Shown here piece after piece: positions 1,386 through 23,381 of a DNA stretch of 24,586 nucleotides. Origin of the DNA: a virus. Its lineage: Duplodnaviria; Heunggongvirae; Uroviricota; Caudoviricetes. A program made the translations under genes and the position numbers. A model generated the notes under the pieces. The model made no database searches and was not told the DNA's origin. It saw nothing but the letters and a program-made list of their open reading frames with translations. The stretch is taken from the IMG/VR virus record IMGVR_UViG_2698536454_000001, positions 1 through 24,586 of that record, one strand, 5' to 3'. The stretch's first letter is position 1. The number at the start of each line of letters is the position of its first letter.

Positions 1386-1991
1386 ATGGTGGTTATGATG
1401 CCTGCTGAACCTAAAACCTATAAACGAAAATCAACGCAATTTAAGCCGCTCACAGCAATGCAGGAGGCTTATTGCCAGTCATACATCAAAACGCCTGAAA
1501 ACCAGACTCAGGCAGCGATTAATGCAGGATTCTCCCCAAATACAGCGGCAGTTAAAGCCAGTGTCATGATGCGCGATGAACGCATTCAAAAACGCATTGC
1601 CGAGTTGATGGAGGAGCGCAACAAACGAATGCGCGTCAGTGCTGATTACGTTCTCATGCGCCTGGTGGAGATCGACCAGATGGACGTGATAGACATCCTC
1701 AACGACGATGGGAGCCTTAAACCAATCCGTGAGTGGCCGAAAATCTGGCGCACTACGCTTAGTGGCTTTGATCTGTCATCGACCATCATGAACATGAACG
1801 AGGATTCGATAGAGACAATCCTCAAAAAAATTAAATGGCCTGACAAGGTGAAGAACCTCGAACTGATTGGTAAGCACGTCGACGTCAACGCATTCAAAGA
1901 ACGCCTGGATGTTAATGTGAATGTGACAATTGCTGATCGTATAGCGGCAGCCAGGAAGAGACTGAAAGAACGTCAGGATGGCAATCAGTGA
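1386..1991 (+). CDS. terminase small subunit
   Basis: Track ORF 1317..1991. Sits directly upstream of and overlapping (GTGA) the large terminase. N-terminal region (QAAINAGFSPNTAAVKASVMM) looks like the HTH-type DNA-binding part of Terminase_2/P27-like small subunits. Start uncertain among ATG 1386, 1395, 1398. Confidence 0.7.
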   Translation: MVVMMPAEPKTYKRKSTQFKPLTAMQEAYCQSYIKTPENQTQAAINAGFSPNTAAVKASVMMRDERIQKRIAELMEERNKRMRVSADYVLMRLVEIDQMDVIDILNDDGSLKPIREWPKIWRTTLSGFDLSSTIMNMNEDSIETILKKIKWPDKVKNLELIGKHVDVNAFKERLDVNVNVTIADRIAAARKRLKERQDGNQ

Positions 1992-3463
1992 CAGATACAG
2001 CGTTATCTCCTGAAGAGCAGTTAATCGAGGATATTGCAGGGTTCACTCACGATCCGCTTGGCTATGCCCTCTATGCGTTCCCGTGGGGGGAAGAGGGGAC
2101 TGAACTGGCACATGCTACCGGCCCACGTCAGTGGCAGGCTGATGCGTTCCGAGAGATACGTGATCACCTGCAGAATCCGGAGACGCGCTATCAGCCGCTT
2201 ATGCTGTCACGCGCTTCTGGTCACGGTATTGGTAAATCCGCATTTATCTCAATGCTGATCAACTGGGGCATGTCCACTTGCGAGGATTGTAAGGTCGTGG
2301 TGACCGCCAACACCGACAACCAGCTACGAACGAAGACCTGGCCGGAAATTATCAAGTGGTCGAACCTTGCTATCACGAAAGACTGGTTTACCTGTACCGC
2401 TACCGCGATGTACAGCAATGACCCTGGGCACGACAAGCGGTGGCGAGCTGACGCAATCCCCTGGTCTGAGCACAACACTGAGGCATTCGCCGGACTACAC
2501 AACGAGCGCAAACGCATCATCGTGGTATTCGATGAAGCGTCGAACATTGCGGATCTGGTGTGGGAAGTTGCTGAGGGTGCGCTTACGGACGAAGACACTG
2601 AGATTATCTGGGTGGCGTTCGGAAACCCTACACGTAACACCGGACGTTTCCGCGAATGTTTCCGCAAATATAAACACCGCTGGAAAACTGCGCAGATTGA
2701 CAGCCGAACGGTGGAAGGCACCAACAAACAGCAGTTGCAGAAATGGGTTGATGACTACGGGGAAGACAGCGACTTCGTTAAAATCCGTGTGCGCGGCATA
2801 TTCCCGGATGCATCTGAATTGCAGTTTATCCCTACCGGTCTTACTGATGAGGCAATGAAACGGGTGGTAACCGCTGCGCAGGTTGCACATGCTCCTGTGA
2901 TAATCGGCGTTGACCCGGCATACTCCGGCGTTGATGACGCTGTGATATACCTGCGGCAGGGTCTGCACAGTAAGGTGCTGTGGACTGGCAACAAGACCAC
3001 TGACGATCTGATAATGGCGAAGCGTATCGCTGACTTTGAAGACCAGTACCAGGCTGACGCGGTGTTCATCGACTTCGGTTACGGAACCGGTCTGAAGTCA
3101 ATCGGTGACGGTTGGGGGCGCACATGGCAACTTGTTCCGTTCGGTGGCGCGTCTACTGACCCGCAGATGCTCAACAAGCGCGGGGAGATGTTCAACTCAT
3201 GCAAGACATGGCTGAGGTTGGGCGGGATGCTGGATGACCAGGAGACAGCGGACGATCTGTCGGCGGCAGAGTACAAAGTTCGCGTGGACGGTAAAATCGT
3301 TATCGAACCGAAGGAAGATATCAAGGAGCGGCTTGGGCGTTCGCCGGGTAAAGGCGATGCGCTACTGCTGACGTTTGCGTTCCCTGTGTCGAAGCGTCTG
3401 CGAATTCCCGGGCAGCAGAACCAGCAAGGCAAGGCCATCACAGATTACGATCCCTATGCTTAA
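1988..3463 (+). CDS. terminase large subunit
   Basis: 491 aa. Walker A-like SRASGHGIGKSAF, Walker B-like IIVVFDEASNI, C-terminal acidic nuclease-type motif VIIGVDPAYSGVDDAVI. GTG start coupled to the small-subunit stop. Confidence 0.85.
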   Translation: MTDTALSPEEQLIEDIAGFTHDPLGYALYAFPWGEEGTELAHATGPRQWQADAFREIRDHLQNPETRYQPLMLSRASGHGIGKSAFISMLINWGMSTCEDCKVVVTANTDNQLRTKTWPEIIKWSNLAITKDWFTCTATAMYSNDPGHDKRWRADAIPWSEHNTEAFAGLHNERKRIIVVFDEASNIADLVWEVAEGALTDEDTEIIWVAFGNPTRNTGRFRECFRKYKHRWKTAQIDSRTVEGTNKQQLQKWVDDYGEDSDFVKIRVRGIFPDASELQFIPTGLTDEAMKRVVTAAQVAHAPVIIGVDPAYSGVDDAVIYLRQGLHSKVLWTGNKTTDDLIMAKRIADFEDQYQADAVFIDFGYGTGLKSIGDGWGRTWQLVPFGGASTDPQMLNKRGEMFNSCKTWLRLGGMLDDQETADDLSAAEYKVRVDGKIVIEPKEDIKERLGRSPGKGDALLLTFAFPVSKRLRIPGQQNQQGKAITDYDPYA

Positions 3464-3514
3464 TCCGCTGGTGGGGATAATGCTGCTGATATCCTCTGGT
3501 GAGGATAAAACAAA

Positions 3515-3537
3515 GCCAGCCCATGAGCTGGCTGTTT
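3515..3537. terminator. bidirectional intrinsic terminator between convergent genes
   Basis: GCCAGC-ccatga-GCTGGC hairpin with TGTTTG on the + side and an A-rich run (UUUGUUUUAU on the - strand) on the other. Confidence 0.65.
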
Positions 3538-3549
3538 GTGACATGTCAC
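3538..3549. repeat. palindrome GTGACATGTCAC, copy 2 (between the bidirectional terminator and the stop of 3554..3925)
   Basis: Perfect 12-bp palindrome, then GGTGTTAT. Confidence 0.9.
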
Positions 3550-3553
3550 GGTG

Positions 3554-3925
3554 TTATTGCTCGCTTAACTTCTGCTTCAGCAAGTAACCTTCAAGCATCC
3601 AGATTTTGTTTACGGCATTCTGCCGGGCAATCTTCCGACCAATTTCTGCATCAAAGTTTTCCTGGCTTGCACAGGCACTCTCTCCGGTGACGGTGAAGCC
3701 ATTGCGCAGCACCAGGACGCAGAACGTCAGCAGAGAAAGTGATTCGTGCGGCTGGTAGTTTACCTCTCCGCCAGTATGTTTCGCTTTTATGGCTTTGCCA
3801 AAGGCACCATCTTCTGCTGTGAAATATGCCTCCTGAGCAATAATGCCTTCGATATGGTCTGGCGTAACGCGCGGTGCCGTTTTGCCTTTCTCAACGATTT
3901 CTTTTTCGATTTGCTGGTCGTTCAT
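3554..3925 (-). CDS. conserved small phage protein (123 aa), possibly Gp49/Sf6 gp66-like
   Basis: ATG 3925 with AGGTGAG RBS. Family name is a weak recollection, not verified. Confidence 0.6.
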   Translation of the reverse strand: MNDQQIEKEIVEKGKTAPRVTPDHIEGIIAQEAYFTAEDGAFGKAIKAKHTGGEVNYQPHESLSLLTFCVLVLRNGFTVTGESACASQENFDAEIGRKIARQNAVNKIWMLEGYLLKQKLSEQ

Positions 3926-3936
3926 AATCTCACCTT

Positions 3937-3960
3937 AAAAAAATGCCCGGCGAACCGGGC
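3937..3960 (-). terminator. intrinsic terminator (minus strand) directly upstream of the 3554..3925 RBS
   Basis: GCCCGG-ttcg-CCGGGC hairpin followed on the minus strand by a run of seven U. Confidence 0.6.
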
Positions 3961-4123
3961 GAACTGGAAGCAATGAGTTATGCCTTCCGTGGCTGTACGG
4001 GTTTACAGCATGAAGTCATCGCAATGGCGTCCTGCTGTAAAAAGGGCGGTGATAGTCCTTCAAGGGAAACCATCACCGCCAAGCACCTGGAACTTCTGGC
4101 ATCACGGTCCTTAGGCGTGATTC

Positions 4124-4200
4124 TGGCGTGGCATGCAGGATTCGAACCTGCGACCAACCGCTTAGAAGGCGGTTGGTCTGTCCGACTGAGCTAATGCCAC
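4124..4200 (-). tRNA. tRNA-Arg (anticodon UCU), argU-like, with one C-C mismatch in the D-stem
   Basis: Reverse complement folds as a 77-nt cloverleaf: 7-bp acceptor stem GTGGCAT/ATGCCAC, anticodon stem ACCGC/GCGGT with loop CTTCTAA, T-arm GCAGG-TTCGAAT-CCTGC, encoded G-CCA 3' end. D-stem GCTC/GACC has one mismatch. Confidence 0.85.
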
Positions 4201-4627
4201 AACGCTGAGAGCACTTAGCCTGTTAAGGCACCACACTTTGTCGCGGCTCCATAAATGCTCTCATCGTTGTACCCTCGTCTCTTCCGAGGCGTCACACCGA
4301 ATCGCCGGGATGGTGAATCCCCGTGCGCGGAATAAAACCGCTCGACTTGCACATTCCGGCTACCTGGTTCGTTTGCCCGAGCAAGGGAGGGTGCCCCTTA
4401 AACGTATCCAGACCGCTATCGGCGCATGTGCCATACGCCGTACTGCTCAAAATAAAAGCTCACTCCACCTGTTCAATTTAACGACAAGCCAGTCAGGTTA
4501 GTAACCGGAATGAGCTCTTTGGTTACCTGAAAGGTAATAATTTGTGCGTTAAATGTCAACTATCTACGATAAATAAATCATATGTGGTTAAATTGGTAAT
4601 AATTTAATTGCGTACGGAGTCATTGAT

Positions 4628-4834
4628 ATGTGCATGGGTAGCTCACCATCAGTGCCTGCAACACCAGAAGTTCAGGCAGCACCACAGGAGCAGGATGCCG
4701 CCGTTGTTGATGCCCGCGACGAAGAAACACGTCGCCGTCGCGCTGCTGCTGGTCGTAGTTCTACGCTGCTTACCGGTTCTCAGGGCGACACATCAACCGC
4801 TAATACCAGCGGTAAAACGCTGCTTGGTCAGTAA
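4628..4834 (+). CDS. small Ala/Arg-rich protein (68 aa), first gene of the morphogenesis operon
   Basis: ATG 4628 follows GGAG; its initiation region CGGAGTCATTGA is duplicated before the portal start. Low-complexity sequence. Confidence 0.45.
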   Translation: MCMGSSPSVPATPEVQAAPQEQDAAVVDARDEETRRRRAAAGRSSTLLTGSQGDTSTANTSGKTLLGQ

Positions 4835-4848
4835 CCGGAGTCATTGAA

Positions 4849-6528
4849 ATGGCGGAAACAACTAAAGAGCGATTGAACAAACAGTTCGCACAACTTGAAA
4901 GCGAGCGTCAGTCGTTCGAGCCGCACTGGCGCGAGTTGAGTGATTACATCAACCCACGTGGTTCCCGCTTTCTGACTTCTGAGGTCAACCGTAACGATCG
5001 ACGCAATACACGCATTATTGATTCGACCGGGACTATGGCGGCGCGCACTCTCGCCAGCGGCATGATGTCAGGCATCACAAGCCCCGCGCGTCCGTGGTTT
5101 CGCCTGGCTACGCCAGATCCTGAAATGATGGATTATGGCCCTGTTAAGTTGTGGCTTGAGGCGGTGCAGAACCGCATGAACGATATGTTCAATAAGTCGA
5201 ATCTCTATCAGTCGCTGCCGCAGTTATACGGAAGCCTCGGCACATACAGCACTGGTGCAATGGCGGTGCTGGAGGATGACGAGGACATCATTCGCACAAT
5301 GCCATTCCCGATAGGCAGTTACTACTTGGCTAACTCACCTCGTGGCAGTGTGGACACCTGTTTTCGCAAGTTCTCTATGACTGTTCGTCAGCTTGTTCAG
5401 GAATTCGGACTAAATAACGTCAGCGAATCCGTAAAAAGCATGTGGGAAAGCGGCACCTACGAGAAGTGGATTGACGTGATGCATTCGGTTTACCCGAACA
5501 TTGACCGCGATACATCGAAGCTGGATAGCAAGAACAAGCCATTCAAATCGGTTTATTACGAGGTTGGTGGCGATAACGACAAGTTGTTGCGTGAGTCCGG
5601 ATTCGATGAGTTTCCAATTATGGCTCCGCGCTGGGAAGTTAACGGCGAAGATGTTTATGGATCATCATGCCCGGGTATGCTGGCGCTTGGACCTGTTAAG
5701 GCATTGCAGCTTCTCCAGAAGCGCAAGTCGCAGTTGATTGATAAAGCCACCAATCCGCCGATGGTTGCTCCGACTTCCCTCAAGAATCAGCGTGCCTCCC
5801 TTCTTCCTGGCGACATCACGTATATCGATCAGATTACTGGTCAGGATGGTTTCAGGCCTGCTTATCTGGTTAACCCTAGTACAGCAGATCTGGTGGCAGA
5901 CATTCAGGACACTCGCCAAATCATTAACAGCGCCTACTTTGTCGATCTGTTCATGATGTTGCAGAACATCAATACCCGCTCGATGCCTGTTGAAGCAGTG
6001 ATCGAAATGAAAGAAGAAAAACTTCTGATGTTGGGGCCGGTTCTGGAGCGTCTGAACGACGAATGTCTTAATCCTCTCATTGACCGCGCTTTCTCGATGA
6101 TGGTGCGTAAAAACATGCTGCCGCCACCGCCTGACGCGATGGAGGGTATGCCCCTGAAGGTCGAATACATTTCCGTCATGGCTCAGGCGCAGAAGTCTAT
6201 CGGCCTGTCCAGTCTGGCGTCTACGGTCAACTTCATTGGTCAACTTGCGCAAGCGAAACCAGAAGCTCTCGACAAACTCAACGTTGATCAGGCGATCGAT
6301 GCATTCGCTGATATGTCCGGAGTGTCTCCAACCGTCATTGTTCCGCAGGAACAGGTTGAGCAGGCTCGCCAGCAACGGGCACAGCAGCAACAGCAGCAAC
6401 AAATGATGGCGATGGGGATGGCGGCGGCACAGGGTGCCAAGACGCTAAGCGAAGCTAAAACTTCGGATCCGAGTGTTTTGTCAGCTATGGCGAATGCAGT
6501 TAGTGGTCAGGGTGGGCAATCACAATGA
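4849..6528 (+). CDS. portal (head-to-tail connector) protein, T7 gp8-like
   Basis: 559 aa. Gln-rich C-terminal tail (QQRAQQQQQQQMMAMGMAAAQGA...) and overall layout recall T7 gp8; followed by scaffold and capsid genes. Confidence 0.8.
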   Translation: MAETTKERLNKQFAQLESERQSFEPHWRELSDYINPRGSRFLTSEVNRNDRRNTRIIDSTGTMAARTLASGMMSGITSPARPWFRLATPDPEMMDYGPVKLWLEAVQNRMNDMFNKSNLYQSLPQLYGSLGTYSTGAMAVLEDDEDIIRTMPFPIGSYYLANSPRGSVDTCFRKFSMTVRQLVQEFGLNNVSESVKSMWESGTYEKWIDVMHSVYPNIDRDTSKLDSKNKPFKSVYYEVGGDNDKLLRESGFDEFPIMAPRWEVNGEDVYGSSCPGMLALGPVKALQLLQKRKSQLIDKATNPPMVAPTSLKNQRASLLPGDITYIDQITGQDGFRPAYLVNPSTADLVADIQDTRQIINSAYFVDLFMMLQNINTRSMPVEAVIEMKEEKLLMLGPVLERLNDECLNPLIDRAFSMMVRKNMLPPPPDAMEGMPLKVEYISVMAQAQKSIGLSSLASTVNFIGQLAQAKPEALDKLNVDQAIDAFADMSGVSPTVIVPQEQVEQARQQRAQQQQQQQMMAMGMAAAQGAKTLSEAKTSDPSVLSAMANAVSGQGGQSQ

Positions 6529-19983: not shown

Positions 19984-20424
19984 CTATTCACAATTAGTGA
20001 TGGCGTATGTATCAAATATATTGCCATCACTAAATACATACCTATACTCAATCTCTCCGCCAAGGTGAATAAATGCTTTCATTTGCCTGTTGGAGCAAAT
20101 GCTCGATTTTGAATAATTTCGCATTACACTCTTTAATTTATTTTCTAAGGTTACATCACCATTATAAACTTTTGATAAATAGCTGTTGTTGTAATTAAGA
20201 TGCGCTACAACTAAAAGTTTGTTTAGTATTGCATTTATTGAAACAATAGACATATTATCATTCAATTTTATGGGAAGTGACTTTCCTGCTTCTGATGCGA
20301 TTTTGTTTGCATGTGCACACATATCCTCATTTATTAAATTCTTAAAACATATGTCGTTTGCAAACGAAAAAATTGGTAGGATAAACAAAACGGTAGCTGT
20401 AATAGCGTGCATCGGCTTAATCAT
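19984..20424 (-). CDS. secreted/periplasmic protein of unknown function (146 aa)
   Basis: N-terminal signal peptide (MHAITATVLFILPIFSFA, then NDI); four Cys in the mature part; visibly AT-rich coding sequence. Start could be ATG 20424 or 20412. Confidence 0.6.
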   Translation of the reverse strand: MIKPMHAITATVLFILPIFSFANDICFKNLINEDMCAHANKIASEAGKSLPIKLNDNMSIVSINAILNKLLVVAHLNYNNSYLSKVYNGDVTLENKLKSVMRNYSKSSICSNRQMKAFIHLGGEIEYRYVFSDGNIFDTYAITNCE

Positions 20425-20436
20425 TAGGTGACCTTT

Positions 20437-20886
20437 ATGTTCAAGAAGATGATCAACAGATTAATCGGTGGTAAGGAGGTTAGCAATAAAATTCAACCTC
20501 TTATCTTTAAGGATAACTTTTCAGCTTTTGAGTATGCGTGTAAGTATCTTGACACAAGCCTTTCAGCCAATAAACCAATGCCAGCCATCATCATACCTGG
20601 CCCCAGTGGGGAACAGCCAGTTTTGCTAGATTCTGGAAGACAAAGGGCAATGCTGAAGGTGTGCTCAGCTGATGGTGGATTTTTTGTTATTGCCGATTCA
20701 TCTTACAGCAAAGGACCAAAGCTGAGGATTGGTGATCTTGTTGCTTGGTTGCCTGTGAGTTATGCCGAAGAATTAACGGATAAAATAGAAGATCCTCGCT
20801 CCGCTATGGTTGGCTTGATATTGGGAACCATTCATCCTGAACTAACATCTACTGGCTGGAAGGGTAAAGAAAGATTTCGCAAGTAG
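20437..20886 (+). CDS. soluble protein of unknown function (150 aa)
   Basis: Track ORF 20428..20886; ATG 20437 follows AGGTGA. AT-rich. Divergent from the secreted-protein gene with starts only about 12 bp apart. Confidence 0.6.
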   Translation: MFKKMINRLIGGKEVSNKIQPLIFKDNFSAFEYACKYLDTSLSANKPMPAIIIPGPSGEQPVLLDSGRQRAMLKVCSADGGFFVIADSSYSKGPKLRIGDLVAWLPVSYAEELTDKIEDPRSAMVGLILGTIHPELTSTGWKGKERFRK

Positions 20887-20887
20887 C

Positions 20888-20899
20888 GTGACATGTCAC
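20888..20899. repeat. palindrome GTGACATGTCAC, copy 3 (between the stop of 20437..20886 and a terminator)
   Basis: Perfect 12-bp palindrome 1 nt after TAG and 1 nt before the terminator hairpin. Confidence 0.9.
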
Positions 20900-20900
20900 A

Positions 20901-20925
20901 GGCCGCTTTCGCGGCCTTGTTTTTA
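20901..20925 (+). terminator. intrinsic terminator
   Basis: GGCCGC-tttc-GCGGCC hairpin followed by TTGTTTTT. Confidence 0.7.
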
Positions 20926-21084
20926 ACGAATGCCGCCGCCGCCCGGGCGGGAATCCGCAGAACGCCCACCGCAGCGGGAGCCGTCAGCGGCAGTATCGCT
21001 GTCGTGCTGACAACGGCCGGCAAAGGCCTGAGTTGAAGCTACCAGAGACAACAAAACGAACAGTGCAGCAAATGCTTTTTTCAT
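20923..21084 (-). CDS. possible small secreted peptide (53 aa)
   Basis: Inside track ORF 20923..21111. ATG 21084 gives MKKAFAALFVLLSLVASTQAFA (signal-like) plus a Gly/Arg/Asp-rich 31-aa tail with two Cys. Weak RBS; GC-rich island in an AT-rich block. Confidence 0.3.
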   Translation of the reverse strand: MKKAFAALFVLLSLVASTQAFAGRCQHDSDTAADGSRCGGRSADSRPGGGGIR

Positions 21085-21157
21085 TGTGAAAAATTTCCAT
21101 CTATAAGCCACCTCAATGTGGCGTCAATGAGTGTAGCACTGACTTTTGTTTCGTCCA

Positions 21158-21178
21158 CAAAAAAGCCCGCAGCGCAGG
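21158..21178 (-). terminator. intrinsic terminator right after the stop of 21180..21719
   Basis: GCCUGC-gcu-GCGGGC hairpin (one G-U pair) followed by six U on the minus strand. Confidence 0.6.
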
Positions 21179-21179
21179 C

Positions 21180-21719
21180 TTACCAAAACTTGTACCACGG
21201 GGATTTATCCTTCAATGGACAATCCTTCCATCGTGTGGCCAACCATTCATATTCTTTAAAATATGTGTTTATGTTTTCTTTTTCTCTAATGGCTTGTATA
21301 AGAGGTAGCGCAATCTGATAGTTATTTACAACGGAGCTGTAAAATACTTCCTTAATCATGGTCTCATCATAAGTTTTCCGCTTCACGCTCACAGCCATGC
21401 GTTCGTAGAAACCTAGACAGTAAATTATTTCTCTCTTCTCTGTCTTTTCTTCATCCGTAAGATCAGCCTGCCCATTGCTTGGATACATATAAGAGCGGAA
21501 TGATTTGTTCGATTCGTGAATGCGGCGCATAGTAGATAGGCCTTTCTTATAATCTACATCAAACCTGCTTTCACCAAGGAATACTGAAGTGTGTACTTTT
21601 CTCGCTGTATTTACATTATAAATAATAGTAGCGATAGCTATGAACAAGCCAAGCGAAACCGCGACTGCACTTACGATTTGAGCCACAGCCATGGCAAATT
21701 GCATTTCTTCACTTAACAC
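21180..21719 (-). CDS. membrane-anchored protein of unknown function (179 aa)
   Basis: GTG 21719 follows GGAGA (alternative ATG 21704). One N-terminal transmembrane helix (AMAVAQIVSAVAVSLGLFIAIATIIY), then a charged soluble domain; AT-rich. Confidence 0.6.
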   Translation of the reverse strand: MLSEEMQFAMAVAQIVSAVAVSLGLFIAIATIIYNVNTARKVHTSVFLGESRFDVDYKKGLSTMRRIHESNKSFRSYMYPSNGQADLTDEEKTEKREIIYCLGFYERMAVSVKRKTYDETMIKEVFYSSVVNNYQIALPLIQAIREKENINTYFKEYEWLATRWKDCPLKDKSPWYKFW

Positions 21720-21758: not shown

Positions 21759-21894
21759 GTCATTAAACTATCCGAATGTTAAACGCCTTCGTACTCGTCA
21801 AATTTTCTCATGTGGGCTCCTCCTGTATCGGTGCCTAATCGCTATGGATCACCCGTGAGGTAATAGTACGCTATTCACCTGCAATCTGTACAGA

Positions 21895-22788: not shown

Positions 22789-22928
22789 CATATGTGCCTC
22801 TGTAGTAACCCGGGACGCCAATCCCGGCACTAGATTTTGCCAGTGCCCGACTACTATGGCACAAGAGGAGTGCGATGTAAATTTACCGCAAAGGTAAATA
22901 TAAGCACTCCACTTGGTAATTGCAAACC

Positions 22929-23225: not shown

Positions 23226-23381
23226 TCAAATAATTTGTTTGCTATCCAGCACGTTTTGCAAATCACCTGAAAGGTAATATCTATTCGTATTTATGGGTTG
23301 TCTATCCATATGTGGTTTTTCGGGTAATAGAATAACCGGATATGCGGCGCAACGGGTGCTGCGACTATCTGGAGAATTAAC

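Follow-up and report, generated by a model that had tools for sequence, protein, structure and literature searches.

An Accessory Unit Between Terminase and Portal in a phiV10-Like Escherichia coli Prophage: a Conserved Leader RNA, an argU-Like tRNA and an Exchangeable Cargo Slot

Organization of the Locus

The window analyzed here is the whole of a 24,586-nucleotide viral record (IMGVR_UViG_2698536454_000001) and represents a phiV10/epsilon15-like (Uetakevirus) prophage of Escherichia coli. Set between its terminase and portal genes is an accessory unit on the minus strand, in which a sigma-70-type promoter with an operator is followed by a leader RNA, a tRNA-Arg(UCU), two terminators (T1 and T2), a shared ribosome-binding site (RBS), a cargo gene and, finally, a terminator held in common with terL. 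By position, the features are:

3514-3533, either strand, convergent bidirectional intrinsic terminator common to terL (plus) and the gp49 unit (minus), with an 8-bp stem and a T-rich tail on the minus strand
3554-3925, minus strand, gp49, encoding a 123-aa protein of the Acb4 family (PF13876), the current occupant of the slot (Pfam, phmmer, loci of relatives)
3929-3936, minus strand, Shine-Dalgarno sequence AAGGTGAG of the cargo gene, in the constant flank
3945-3960, minus strand, terminator T2, GCCCGG-TTCG-CCGGGC plus T7 (terminator scan)
4045-4080, minus strand, terminator T1, a 14-bp stem plus CTTTTT (terminator scan)
4124-4200, minus strand, argU-like tRNA-Arg(UCU) with encoded CCA and the rare G24C allele, C11:C24 (ARAGORN, Rfam, alignments, fold)
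4201-4262, minus strand, 3' extension of the leader RNA, a long stem (GAUGAGAGCAUUU...AAGUGCUCUCAGC)
4263-4447, minus strand, conserved structured core of the leader RNA, about 185 nt (alignments A1-A3, pair counts, covariance model R1)
4523-4559, minus strand, putative sigma-70 promoter of the unit (conserved across genera; -10 element under the scan threshold)
4595-4604, minus strand, second AATTATTACC box, in the control region from which this unit and the 68-aa/portal operon diverge

Much of this arrangement is familiar. Positions 3400-4900 are 96% identical to phiV10 and to E. coli O157 typing phages 9 and 10, in which a tRNA-Arg is already annotated at the matching locus, and 100% identical to E. 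coli 602687 (98.99% over 1-21182), for which RefSeq lists a "Gp49 family protein" and a "tRNA-Arg" at this place. The same position between terL and portal, with tRNA-Arg(TCT), leader and terminators, is found in phiV10, typing phages 9 and 10, phiv142-3 and the Salmonella phages SPN1S, SPN9TCW and SPC32H, all Uetakevirus, identity to the window being 96-98% in the phages of E. coli and near 80% in those of Salmonella; several of these records annotate the tRNA-Arg. The tRNA and Gp49 together are an ordinary unit of phiV10-like/Uetakevirus phages that is already annotated in RefSeq and in several GenBank phage records, and what is new in the vicinity is confined to a conserved folded RNA, so far without annotation, immediately 5' of the tRNA. 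An attP-type role for the tRNA was considered and rejected, as the prophage of the closest complete-genome relative adjoins guaA, with its integrase 17 kb away.

An earlier description of this locus, made from the sequence only, saw a single opposite-strand insert ending at 4200 and bracketed by a bidirectional terminator. Its location and strand are correct, but comparison with relatives resolves the insert into two joined modules, namely a constant one (promoter, leader RNA, tRNA and two terminators) and a separately exchangeable cargo slot. The bidirectional terminator lies at the gp49 end alone, between the stop codons of terL (3463) and gp49 (3554); it makes a good minus-strand terminator and a poorer one on the plus strand, on which the phiV10 record annotates a terminator at this point. 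At the other end, 4201-4559 holds the promoter and the structured leader rather than a terminator, so the transcription unit reaches to about 4559. The second terminator proposed between the tRNA and the gene, against the RBS, is indeed present as T2, 9 nt before the Shine-Dalgarno sequence, and relatives from other genera likewise have a terminator just before their cargo gene. The stronger T1, 44 nt past the 3' end of the tRNA, had been overlooked.

Gp49 and the Exchangeable Cargo Slot

The gene next to terL, first described simply as a small conserved phage gene, is a genuine ORF that starts at an ATG at 3925 and has a known family. Gp49 matches PF13876 at 118.5 bits (cutoff 27; E=1.8e-34) across model positions 1-82 of 82, and it is in this Pfam family that the Acb4 paper places Acb4; Tad2-Acb4 fusions are reported as common. 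Full-model membership is shared with Acb4 (anti-CBASS 4) of Bacillus phage SPO1, though the pairwise match is weak (phmmer against PDB 9E4W, E=0.0061 over 42 residues of the beta-core) and Gp49 is the longer protein, with 123 aa against 96 aa. Given this family, Gp49 is likely a cyclic-nucleotide sponge directed against CBASS, and as such a candidate anti-defence protein. A sponge of the Acb4 type would form a tetramer, bind 3'3'-cGAMP or other signals of CBASS and thereby rescue the phage.

The position that gp49 occupies is open to other genes. Among 80 close relatives it is swapped for something else in 43, and of 82 loci only 37 are collinear with the window, the rest carrying at least eight different minus-strand genes. 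The locus that the sequence-only reading had suggested looking for in related phages is thus found in many of them, with varying cargo that includes Tad2 domains; SPN9TCW, for example, has a 168-aa protein here and a Klebsiella phage has Tad2. Relatives with near-identical portals (99-100%) place the breakpoints of the slot at 3463-3559 and 3918-3937, and homology resumes at the latter whatever the cargo, with the Shine-Dalgarno sequence in the constant flank. The locus thus shows what defines a moron or accessory slot, namely variable genes at a fixed site, with conserved flanks and a terminator, in otherwise near-identical phages. No promoter of the cargo's own was detected between T1/T2 and gp49 in the promoter scan, and the sole conserved promoter lies 600 nt upstream. 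One useful correction to the first description is that the neighbor of the tRNA belongs to the Acb4 family, is a candidate sponge against CBASS and occupies an anti-defence slot whose content can be swapped; as first written, the finding changes little, for it concerns a known type of tRNA that is already annotated.

The tRNA-Arg(UCU) and Its D-Stem Allele

ARAGORN calls tRNA-Arg(tct) as the only tRNA gene in the window, and the minus-strand, argU-like tRNA with a UCU anticodon of the original description is well borne out. Against Rfam RF00005 it scores 62.5 bits (E=1.4e-11), far above the gathering score of 29, and the low covariance score that would speak against it was not seen. It is 77 nt long with an encoded CCA and is identical to E. 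coli argU (dnaY) at 62 of 77 positions. Compensation for the rare AGA and AGG codons by argU-like tRNAs carried on phages is textbook knowledge, argN and argO of Stx phages being examples of such tRNAs. With argU the phage tRNA shares the rationale of a rare AGA/AGG decoder, the anticodon, the whole anticodon loop and the T-arm, whereas its acceptor and anticodon stems have been recoded with compensatory changes. Recognition by E. coli ArgRS depends on A20, C35, U36 and A/G73, and inspection of the aligned sequence finds A20 (in the D-loop AGUCGGACA), the anticodon U34 C35 U36 and discriminator G73, of which A20 and G73 are again common to argU. Rfam searches revealed no degenerate second tRNA hidden in the spacer between the tRNA and gp49 or in relatives without the tRNA. 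Such tRNA-less relatives exist in other genera, which makes the tRNA dispensable for this type of phage.

The D-stem mismatch noted at the outset is also real. A single pair in the RF00005 alignment is flagged as non-canonical, namely C11:C24 of the D-stem (GCUC/GACC), so that this stem, unlike that of argU, falls short of four canonical pairs by the loss of Y11-R24. It is, by the comparison of relatives, a rare derived G24C allele and not a trait of the phage family: 79 of 80 relatives have G24, the Uetakevirus phages listed above have the canonical C11-G24, and among 501 E. coli genomes carrying the tRNA just 6 have the exact C24 sequence, a minority allele of about 1%. Other stem-breaking variants exist among the relatives, each as a singleton. 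Sequencing error can be dismissed as the source, since strain 602687 has C24 too, as do five Z1323CEC isolates with a diverged prophage. The prophages that share it differ at 170 of 6601 flanking sites (2.6%), so the allele has been retained or has spread, a point against its being strongly harmful.

Its predicted cost is nonetheless considerable. C24 brings the Rfam score down from 73.3 bits, the value for G24, to 62.5, a loss of 10.8 bits, and in ViennaRNA, which models neither tRNA modification nor tertiary contacts, the cloverleaf weakens by 6.7 kcal/mol, from -29.3 (G24) to -22.6 (C24), while the misfolded minimum-energy structure beats the cloverleaf by 14.3 kcal/mol with C24 against 3.5 with G24. 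As the cloverleaf is weakened and a competing extended anticodon stem created, this copy of the tRNA is probably impaired. The choice first posed between "functional-but-divergent" and "decaying" accordingly tilts, on rarity and on modeled folding damage, toward the latter, a decaying or impaired copy appearing more likely than a functional one. As a rare and probably deleterious allele, the mismatch should not be taken as a property of the phage family.

Codon usage favors a role of the tRNA in supply. Counted on the window's own ORFs, AGA is used 5.6 and AGG 6.0 times per 1000 codons (20% of Arg codons), against 1.1 and 0.4 (2.6% of Arg codons) in 42 adjacent host genes. The odds ratio is 7.7 (p=1e-22), so usage in the window's genes is about eight-fold that of neighboring host genes, as the sequence-only reading had expected. 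Its suggestion that the tRNA supports AT-rich cargo holds in part. In the AT-rich accessory genes at 19984-21719, AGA and AGG make up 11 of 20 Arg codons; gp49, however, is not AT-rich (GC 0.49) and has no AGA or AGG at all, and the heavy users are the ejection proteins of 916 and 1130 aa. Supply of rare Arg codons by the phage tRNA is a plausible role.

A Conserved Structured Leader RNA

Upstream of the tRNA, the leader core comprises a P1 hairpin, P2, an invariant GGAAUGUGCAAG, a variable hairpin, P5 with a CACC/GGUG pseudoknot and a P6 hairpin with a GGAAGAG loop. In the alignments, members of the family measure 170-196 nt and hold five helices and the pseudoknot, with 58 invariant positions in the core. 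Covariation appears to support the structure strongly, with 96.2% and 96.9% of pair counts paired and compensatory pairs in 12 of 29 and 11 of 25 cases, and covariance model R1 scores the window's copy at 161 bits. The long stem of the 3' extension, which is kept in lambdoid, Klebsiella and Salmonella copies, ends 4 nt before position 1 of the tRNA.

The family is widespread, occurring in phage P1 (trnI-ban), in the PL leaders of N-less lambdoids and in some 34% of the complete E. coli genomes. Lambdoid copies follow a cI-like repressor gene and operator-like repeats, Uetakevirus copies follow a conserved promoter and precede two terminators, and in P1-like relatives the leader comes after tRNA arrays and ahead of Tad2. 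No tRNA adjoins the leader in most lambdoid copies, nor in many of those from Uetakevirus. In Rfam 15, only the tRNA matches within 3400-4900 at E<=5, and at gathering score 11 related loci, P1 and mEp460 among them, return tRNAs, C4 and isrK with no family for the leader. A literature search on its invariant 15-mer, on RNA features of P1 trnI/ban and on the phiV10 tRNA-Arg found nothing relevant. The yfdP region of CPS-53 in K-12 has no copy, an absence that may explain why K-12 sRNA surveys missed the leader. Absent from Rfam and unannotated in P1 and many lambdoid prophages, the family may matter more than the tRNA.

That 4201-4627 instead encodes a small plus-strand protein, as the old annotation of phiV10 p04 or as mEp460_037 would have it, is hardly credible. 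Plus-strand open frames of 52-87 codons are available, and some records do annotate hypothetical proteins over the region, but PGAP places no gene call there. Moreover, distances between invariant blocks fall into all three classes modulo 3 (12/9/8 and 13/8/8) and the variation is compensatory within helices, and on these two grounds we reject the coding reading. Invariant G:U pairs identify the minus strand as the functional one.

Control and Proposed Mechanism

The candidate promoter has a -35 element TTGACA (4559-4554), a 17-nt spacer and a -10 element TACCTT (4536-4531). The latter matches consensus at three of six positions and is below the threshold of the scan tool, so we treat the promoter as putative; its sequence is conserved across genera. 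Overlapping it is a palindrome, TTACC-N5-GGTAA, at 4537-4523. This motif occurs six times in the window against 0.37 expected, and 13 times in a related prophage, including on both sides of the repressor gene. From its distribution, we infer that the unit is controlled by the prophage repressor, a 195-aa HTH protein. Overlap of a promoter with a repressor-type operator suggests lytic rather than lysogenic expression, and the unit therefore looks like an early one and not like a lysogenic-conversion moron.

Taken as a whole, the locus is in our view best described as a phiV10-like, leftward, repressor-controlled accessory unit with a leader, a probably impaired argU-like tRNA and an exchangeable Acb4-family cargo, an account that we hold to be probable. 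In a lysogen, the repressor would hold the unit off, and the unit would fire early upon induction or infection. The tRNA would be cut free from the transcript by RNase P and by processing of its 3' end, and would add AGA and some AGG decoding for phage genes rich in these codons. Some transcripts would pass both T1 and T2 and express the anti-defence cargo; such read-through would be needed because the cargo has no detectable promoter between the terminators and itself. The leader RNA is the candidate enabler of this read-through.

Other accounts of the unit differ chiefly over the tRNA. The original model, in which a single moron insert, expressed from the prophage, supplies a functional-but-divergent tRNA for AT-rich prophage cargo, draws on the real AGA/AGG enrichment (most marked at 19984-21719), on a tRNA that keeps 62.5 bits and its identity elements, and on the persistence of C24 in diverged prophages. 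We find it unlikely, given that only about 1% of the copies carry the mismatch, for which a large folding cost is predicted, that the adjoining gp49 is free of AGA and AGG, that the unit is modular and that the promoter-operator overlap points to lytic expression. It is possible, if somewhat short of probable, that the tRNA is a non-functional remnant in this lineage, locked by G24C into a rod-like fold with an extended anticodon stem, its gene drifting under relaxed selection in a resident prophage. The drop in Rfam score, the enlarged advantage of the misfold, the dispensability of the tRNA in related phages and the singleton stem-breaking variants of other relatives would all agree with this. 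Against it, there is but one substitution, no other stem and no identity element is affected, and the allele is common to prophages 2.6% diverged. In vivo, modified tRNAs often tolerate one D-stem mismatch, which likewise weakens the remnant reading. The tRNA might lastly serve chiefly in counter-defence, as a spare copy, or as a decoy, where a host anticodon nuclease attacks tRNA-Arg. Phage tRNAs reportedly rescue cleaved host tRNAs in work on T5 and on PARIS/retron systems, and such a role fits a tRNA placed in an anti-defence island and co-transcribed with a slot for sponge-type genes (Acb4/Tad2), as it fits the leader's place between tRNA arrays and Tad2 in P1-like relatives. It is quite improbable all the same: the AGA/AGG enrichment already accounts for the tRNA, an anticodon loop identical to that of host argU would offer no escape from a loop-specific nuclease, and no E. 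coli defence specific for tRNA-Arg(UCU) is known to us.

For the leader, we tentatively entertain a new class of cis-acting phage RNA, either an antiterminator with a distant relation to put that modifies RNA polymerase or a sensor of some signal, that would license read-through of untranslated tRNA stretches and of intrinsic terminators, and by which tRNAs, replication genes and anti-defence cargo (Acb4, Tad2) would be expressed from early operons under repressor control; we think this more doubtful than not. Also doubtful is the notion that the leader is no cis-acting read-through element at all but a stable trans-acting ncRNA freed by tRNA-processing enzymes, RNase P here and 3' tRNA processing in P1, with the orphan stable RNAs of the T4 tRNA cluster as a parallel. 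Such an RNA would suit a leader that abuts a tRNA in two of three contexts and whose core is compact, highly conserved and pseudoknotted. It would suit less well the many lambdoid and Uetakevirus copies without a neighboring tRNA, the constant placement of the leader upstream of co-oriented genes in repressor-controlled early operons, and the terminators that separate leader from cargo in the Uetakevirus context.

Relation to Known Systems

One parallel to the unit is the ban operon of P1 (tciABC-trnI-ban, controlled by C1), which similarly joins a tRNA, the leader and an early gene in a repressor-controlled operon. In P1, P7, D6, SJ46 and RCS47 a member of the leader family sits 14 nt past trnI and about 85-100 nt ahead of ban (153.9 bits in P1), in a stretch that the detailed P1 record leaves unannotated. 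The order in P1 is tRNA then leader, the reverse of that in the window, and no intrinsic terminator follows the P1 leader, unlike here.

Another comparison is with the put RNAs, which make RNA polymerase terminator-resistant through the zinc-binding domain of beta'. In N-less lambdoids the leader occupies the place that putL has in HK022 (putL/putR), and the putL-like element in HK639, just downstream of the repressor gene and PL. A put RNA, however, has about 70 nt and two stem-loops (PMC9378689), compared with the 170-196 nt, five helices and pseudoknot of the leader, which is moreover present in a single copy per phage, unlike the putL/putR pair of HK022. With covariance model R1 finding no match at E<=10 in HK022 or HK639 and nhmmer none in HK639, and with size and helix count so different, we do not place the leader among the put RNAs of the HK022 type, and the resemblance left is one of motif: the base of the first hairpin shares CGGCG...CAUGCGUCG and then AGCGG with put stem I, a 9-nt and a 5-nt motif only. 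Location, in contrast, agrees with put, in that the RNA lies in the leader of early operons in N-less lambdoids and is followed, in the Uetakevirus context, by terminators ahead of the downstream genes. Put-like antitermination is our leading guess for what the leader may do, and if the leader does control read-through into early or anti-defence genes, it would join put as a second system in which antitermination or regulation is carried out by RNA only.

The tRNA-Arg Locus and Its C24 Allele

The tRNA and the small gene beside it are already known and annotated, and as a finding they are real but ordinary. What the present check adds is the assignment of the small gene to the Acb4 family, a modular anatomy in which repressor control is probable and, most importantly, an adjacent structured RNA family not described before. 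The minus-strand tRNA-Arg(UCU) proposed in a sequence-only reading is borne out by both tools applied: across the window ARAGORN calls just one tRNA gene, tRNA-Arg(tct), located at 4124-4200(-), and the Rfam tRNA model scores it at 62.5 bits (E=1.4e-11; gathering score 29), with the D-stem C-C mismatch of that reading present as C11:C24, its sole non-canonical pair. The tRNA is 77 nt long with CCA encoded, possesses A20, C35, U36, and G73 on inspection, and is the same as E. coli argU at 62/77 positions, the anticodon loop and T-arm being identical. Positions 3400-4900 share 96% identity with phiV10 and the O157 typing phages 9 and 10, and ~80% with SPN1S-type phages of Salmonella. These phages all belong to Uetakevirus, and tRNA-Arg is annotated here in several of their records. 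At least 80% of this stretch is carried by 223 complete E. coli genomes, across which RefSeq labels in E. coli read Gp49 family protein, tRNA-Arg, and portal. The best hit is to strain 602687, with 100% identity over 3400-4900 but only 98.99% over window positions 1-21182, which makes the window a close relative of 602687 and not the same genome.

The one unusual feature of the finding, the D-stem mismatch, is a rare, derived minority allele that is probably detrimental to the tRNA. Eighty IMG/VR relatives were gathered via the portal protein. Of 80 tRNA copies from the loci retrieved, 79 have G at position 24; C24 is seen once, in the 602687 locus, which does not differ from the window in this region. 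The tRNA is carried by 501 of 5426 complete E. coli genomes, and the exact C24 sequence by six, namely 602687 and five Z1323CEC chicken isolates. A copy differing only by G24 scores 73.3 bits, a C24 penalty of 10.8 bits under the Rfam model. ViennaRNA gives cloverleaf energies of -29.3 (G24) and -22.6 kcal/mol (C24); with C24, GACC at positions 22-25 is predicted to pair with GGUC of the variable region, growing the anticodon stem to 10 bp, and misfolding is favored over the cloverleaf by 14.3 kcal/mol versus 3.5 with G24. Since the Z1323CEC prophage shares C24 yet differs at 170/6601 surrounding sites, the allele is neither a sequencing error nor a brand-new change. We read its tolerance as reflecting a dispensable tRNA.

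Codon use was counted in the 26 main ORFs of the window and in 42 host genes adjoining a related prophage. AGA and AGG reach 5.6 and 6.0 per 1000 codons in the window (20% of Arg codons) versus 1.1 and 0.4 in the host genes (2.6%; odds ratio 7.7, p=1e-22), and the full related prophage stands at 19% of Arg codons. The heavy users are a 916-aa protein (18/49 Arg codons), a 1130-aa ejection protein (24/86), and the AT-rich accessory genes at 19984-21719 (GC 0.32-0.42, mostly minus strand; 11/20); abundant head proteins have none or one. The suggestion that the tRNA supplies rare Arg codons therefore holds at the level of the whole phage, AT-rich genes included; AGA and AGG are absent from the adjoining gp49.

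A Structured Leader RNA

The 430-nt interval separating the tRNA from the gene for a 68-aa protein is not spacer. It contains the following element, an RNA family undescribed so far:

4263-4447, 3' extension to 4201 (-): leader RNA, directly 5' of the tRNA, pseudoknotted, with strong covariation support

Stx2c phages and further lambdoids keep positions 4201-4441 at ~80%, and P1-type phages keep 4279-4441 to a similar degree; the records examined for these lambdoid and P1-type phages hold no annotation of the stretch, which matches 1840 of 5426 E. coli genomes (~34% of complete genomes). Alignments comprise invariant blocks with variable hairpins between them. The block spacing falls in all three modulo-3 classes, thereby ruling out a conserved ORF, and invariant G:U pairs identify the window's minus strand as the sense strand. 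Applied to 29 distinct sequences, drawn from phages and from 21 Enterobacteriaceae species, a model of five helices with a CACC/GGUG pseudoknot leaves 96.2% of cells paired (slid controls, 27-47%), with compensatory changes in 12/29 pairs, a number reached by 0/500 shuffles. In a second, independent collection, 64 distinct sequences from IMG/VR, 96.9% of cells are paired and 11/25 pairs are compensatory. Rfam 15 yielded no match.

Neighboring tRNAs and downstream genes are all co-oriented with the leader. In Uetakevirus, it diverges from the 68-aa/portal operon and is followed by tRNA-Arg, terminators, and cargo, the tRNA being missing in the Citrobacter, Kluyvera, Erwinia, and similar members examined. 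N-less lambdoids (mEp460, cdtI, 2H10, and Stx2c types) have a cI-like repressor, operator-like repeats, the leader, and early-left genes; P1, P7, D6, and SJ46 have a tRNA array, trnI, 14 nt, the leader, and then ban or Tad2. Full-length copies also occur in Tyrion, a Stenotrophomonas-labelled phage, and Klebsiella SopranoGao, and none in K-12 CPS-53. One IMG/VR contig carries two, at 3985-4159 and 4792-4964 (both -), ~630 nt apart. In three lambdoid loci (L083, L086, and L137) the leader's 3' end is AGCGTTGTGG, keeping the first 4-5 nt of the tRNA-Arg gene without the tRNA. This remnant hints that leader and tRNA may once have moved as one, with the tRNA lost or replaced later.

A Hypervariable Cargo Slot

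Downstream of the tRNA lie the following features:

3463-3937: hypervariable cargo slot for minus-strand genes, with precise breakpoints and unrelated occupants including Acb4 and Tad2 families
3554-3925 (-): gp49 ORF, 123 aa, PF13876 (E=1.8e-34)
3514-3533: hairpin terminator between converging terL and gp49 (terminator scan)
3945-3960 (-): hairpin and T7 run, 9 nt before the cargo SD (terminator scan)
4045-4080 (-): stronger terminator, 44 nt past the tRNA (terminator scan)

The small minus-strand phage gene seen previously is thus confirmed as a PF13876 member. The founding member of this family, SPO1 Acb4, acts as a tetrameric sponge of the cyclic dinucleotides of CBASS, and fusions of family proteins to Tad2 are frequent; Gp49 shows a weak match (E=0.006) to 9E4W, a solved Acb4 chain. 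Both hairpins of the earlier reading were recovered by the scan, but the stronger terminator had been left out.

Among relatives with portals 99-100% identical, only 37/82 loci are collinear with the window. In the remaining loci, 3463/3559 to 3918/3937 is swapped for at least eight other minus-strand genes, encoding a 135-aa protein, 201-310-aa coiled-coil membrane proteins (phrog_4780), 92-, 99-, and 115-aa proteins, or a Tad2-domain fragment; a Klebsiella relative carries a full Tad2 as cargo. The left breakpoint lies at the terL-side terminator and the right at the cargo start codon or SD, so the cargos share one RBS and one upstream terminator. None of the different cargos brings a detectable promoter of its own, and tRNA-less relatives still have a terminator directly before the cargo gene. 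The neighboring large terminase (1988-3463, 491 aa) has no Pfam match at E<=0.01, and RefSeq genomes differ in its label, some giving "hypothetical protein" and others "terminase".

Possible Function and Control of the Leader

With no detectable promoter of its own and lying behind two intrinsic terminators, the cargo would require read-through to be expressed. The leading, if tentative, idea is put-like processive antitermination, which could include anti-Rho protection of the long untranslated tRNA/leader stretches. The leader sits at the putL position in N-less lambdoids, and CGGCG...CAUGCGUCG at the foot of its first hairpin, followed by AGCGG, is matched in put stem I of both HK022 and HK639. 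Points against it are that put is a 70-nt two-stem RNA (PMC9378689), that the leader covariance model (CM R1) found nothing in HK022 and HK639, that P1 has no terminator after its leader, and that mEp460 has a boxA-like sequence further downstream of the leader. There, at 2889-3030, a long-loop hairpin precedes CGCUCUUUUUACAA, a sequence similar to rrn/lambda boxA, and a second long hairpin comes after it; the site may be nut-like, in a phage without a recognizable N gene. About as probable as put-like antitermination is a stable RNA that tRNA processing releases and that acts in trans, and other cis roles take up the remainder.

Upstream of the leader, ATTGACA, 17 nt, and TACCTT (4559-4531, -) are conserved in 11/12 Uetakevirus-type loci from several genera, the first leader hairpin beginning only ~12-35 nt after the -10 in some relatives. 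The palindrome TTACC-N5-GGTAA (4537-4523) immediately overlaps this putative promoter, and its 15 bp recur in the window at six sites versus 0.37 expected. The relevant features are:

1363-1377, 1381-1395, 4523-4537, 21849-21863, 22883-22897, 23263-23277: TTACC-N5-GGTAA sites in the window
10772, 10834, 11546, 11594, and others: palindrome positions in the comparison locus L001
22664-22750 (-): C4 antisense RNA, 79.5 bits
22770-22846 (-): isrK, 72.3 bits

Two of the window's sites immediately precede the terS ATG, and another lies on the isrK/C4 immunity RNA promoter. A related prophage has 13 palindromes versus 0.55 expected, with pairs flanking an HTH repressor gene on both sides. Such over-representation at promoter-like sites and around the repressor gene suggests that TTACC-N5-GGTAA is the operator of the main repressor, a dispersed set like the C1 operators of P1. 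In that case, the leader-tRNA-cargo unit would be kept off by the repressor in a lysogen and switch on early once induced. Repressor control is a step that we infer, given a weak -10 (TACCTT) that the promoter scan did not call. C4 and isrK lie in tandem adjoining a BRO-N gene, the same pair occurring in mEp460, and constitute an immI antirepressor control module of the P1/P7 type, here within a Uetakevirus prophage. Separately, a related RefSeq record annotates the terS start as TTG 1317, upstream of a terminator-like hairpin and two of the palindromes; the ATG at ~1396-1399, right after them, looks the more plausible start. An early unit under repressor control agrees with the lambdoid PL and C1-controlled ban operon contexts.
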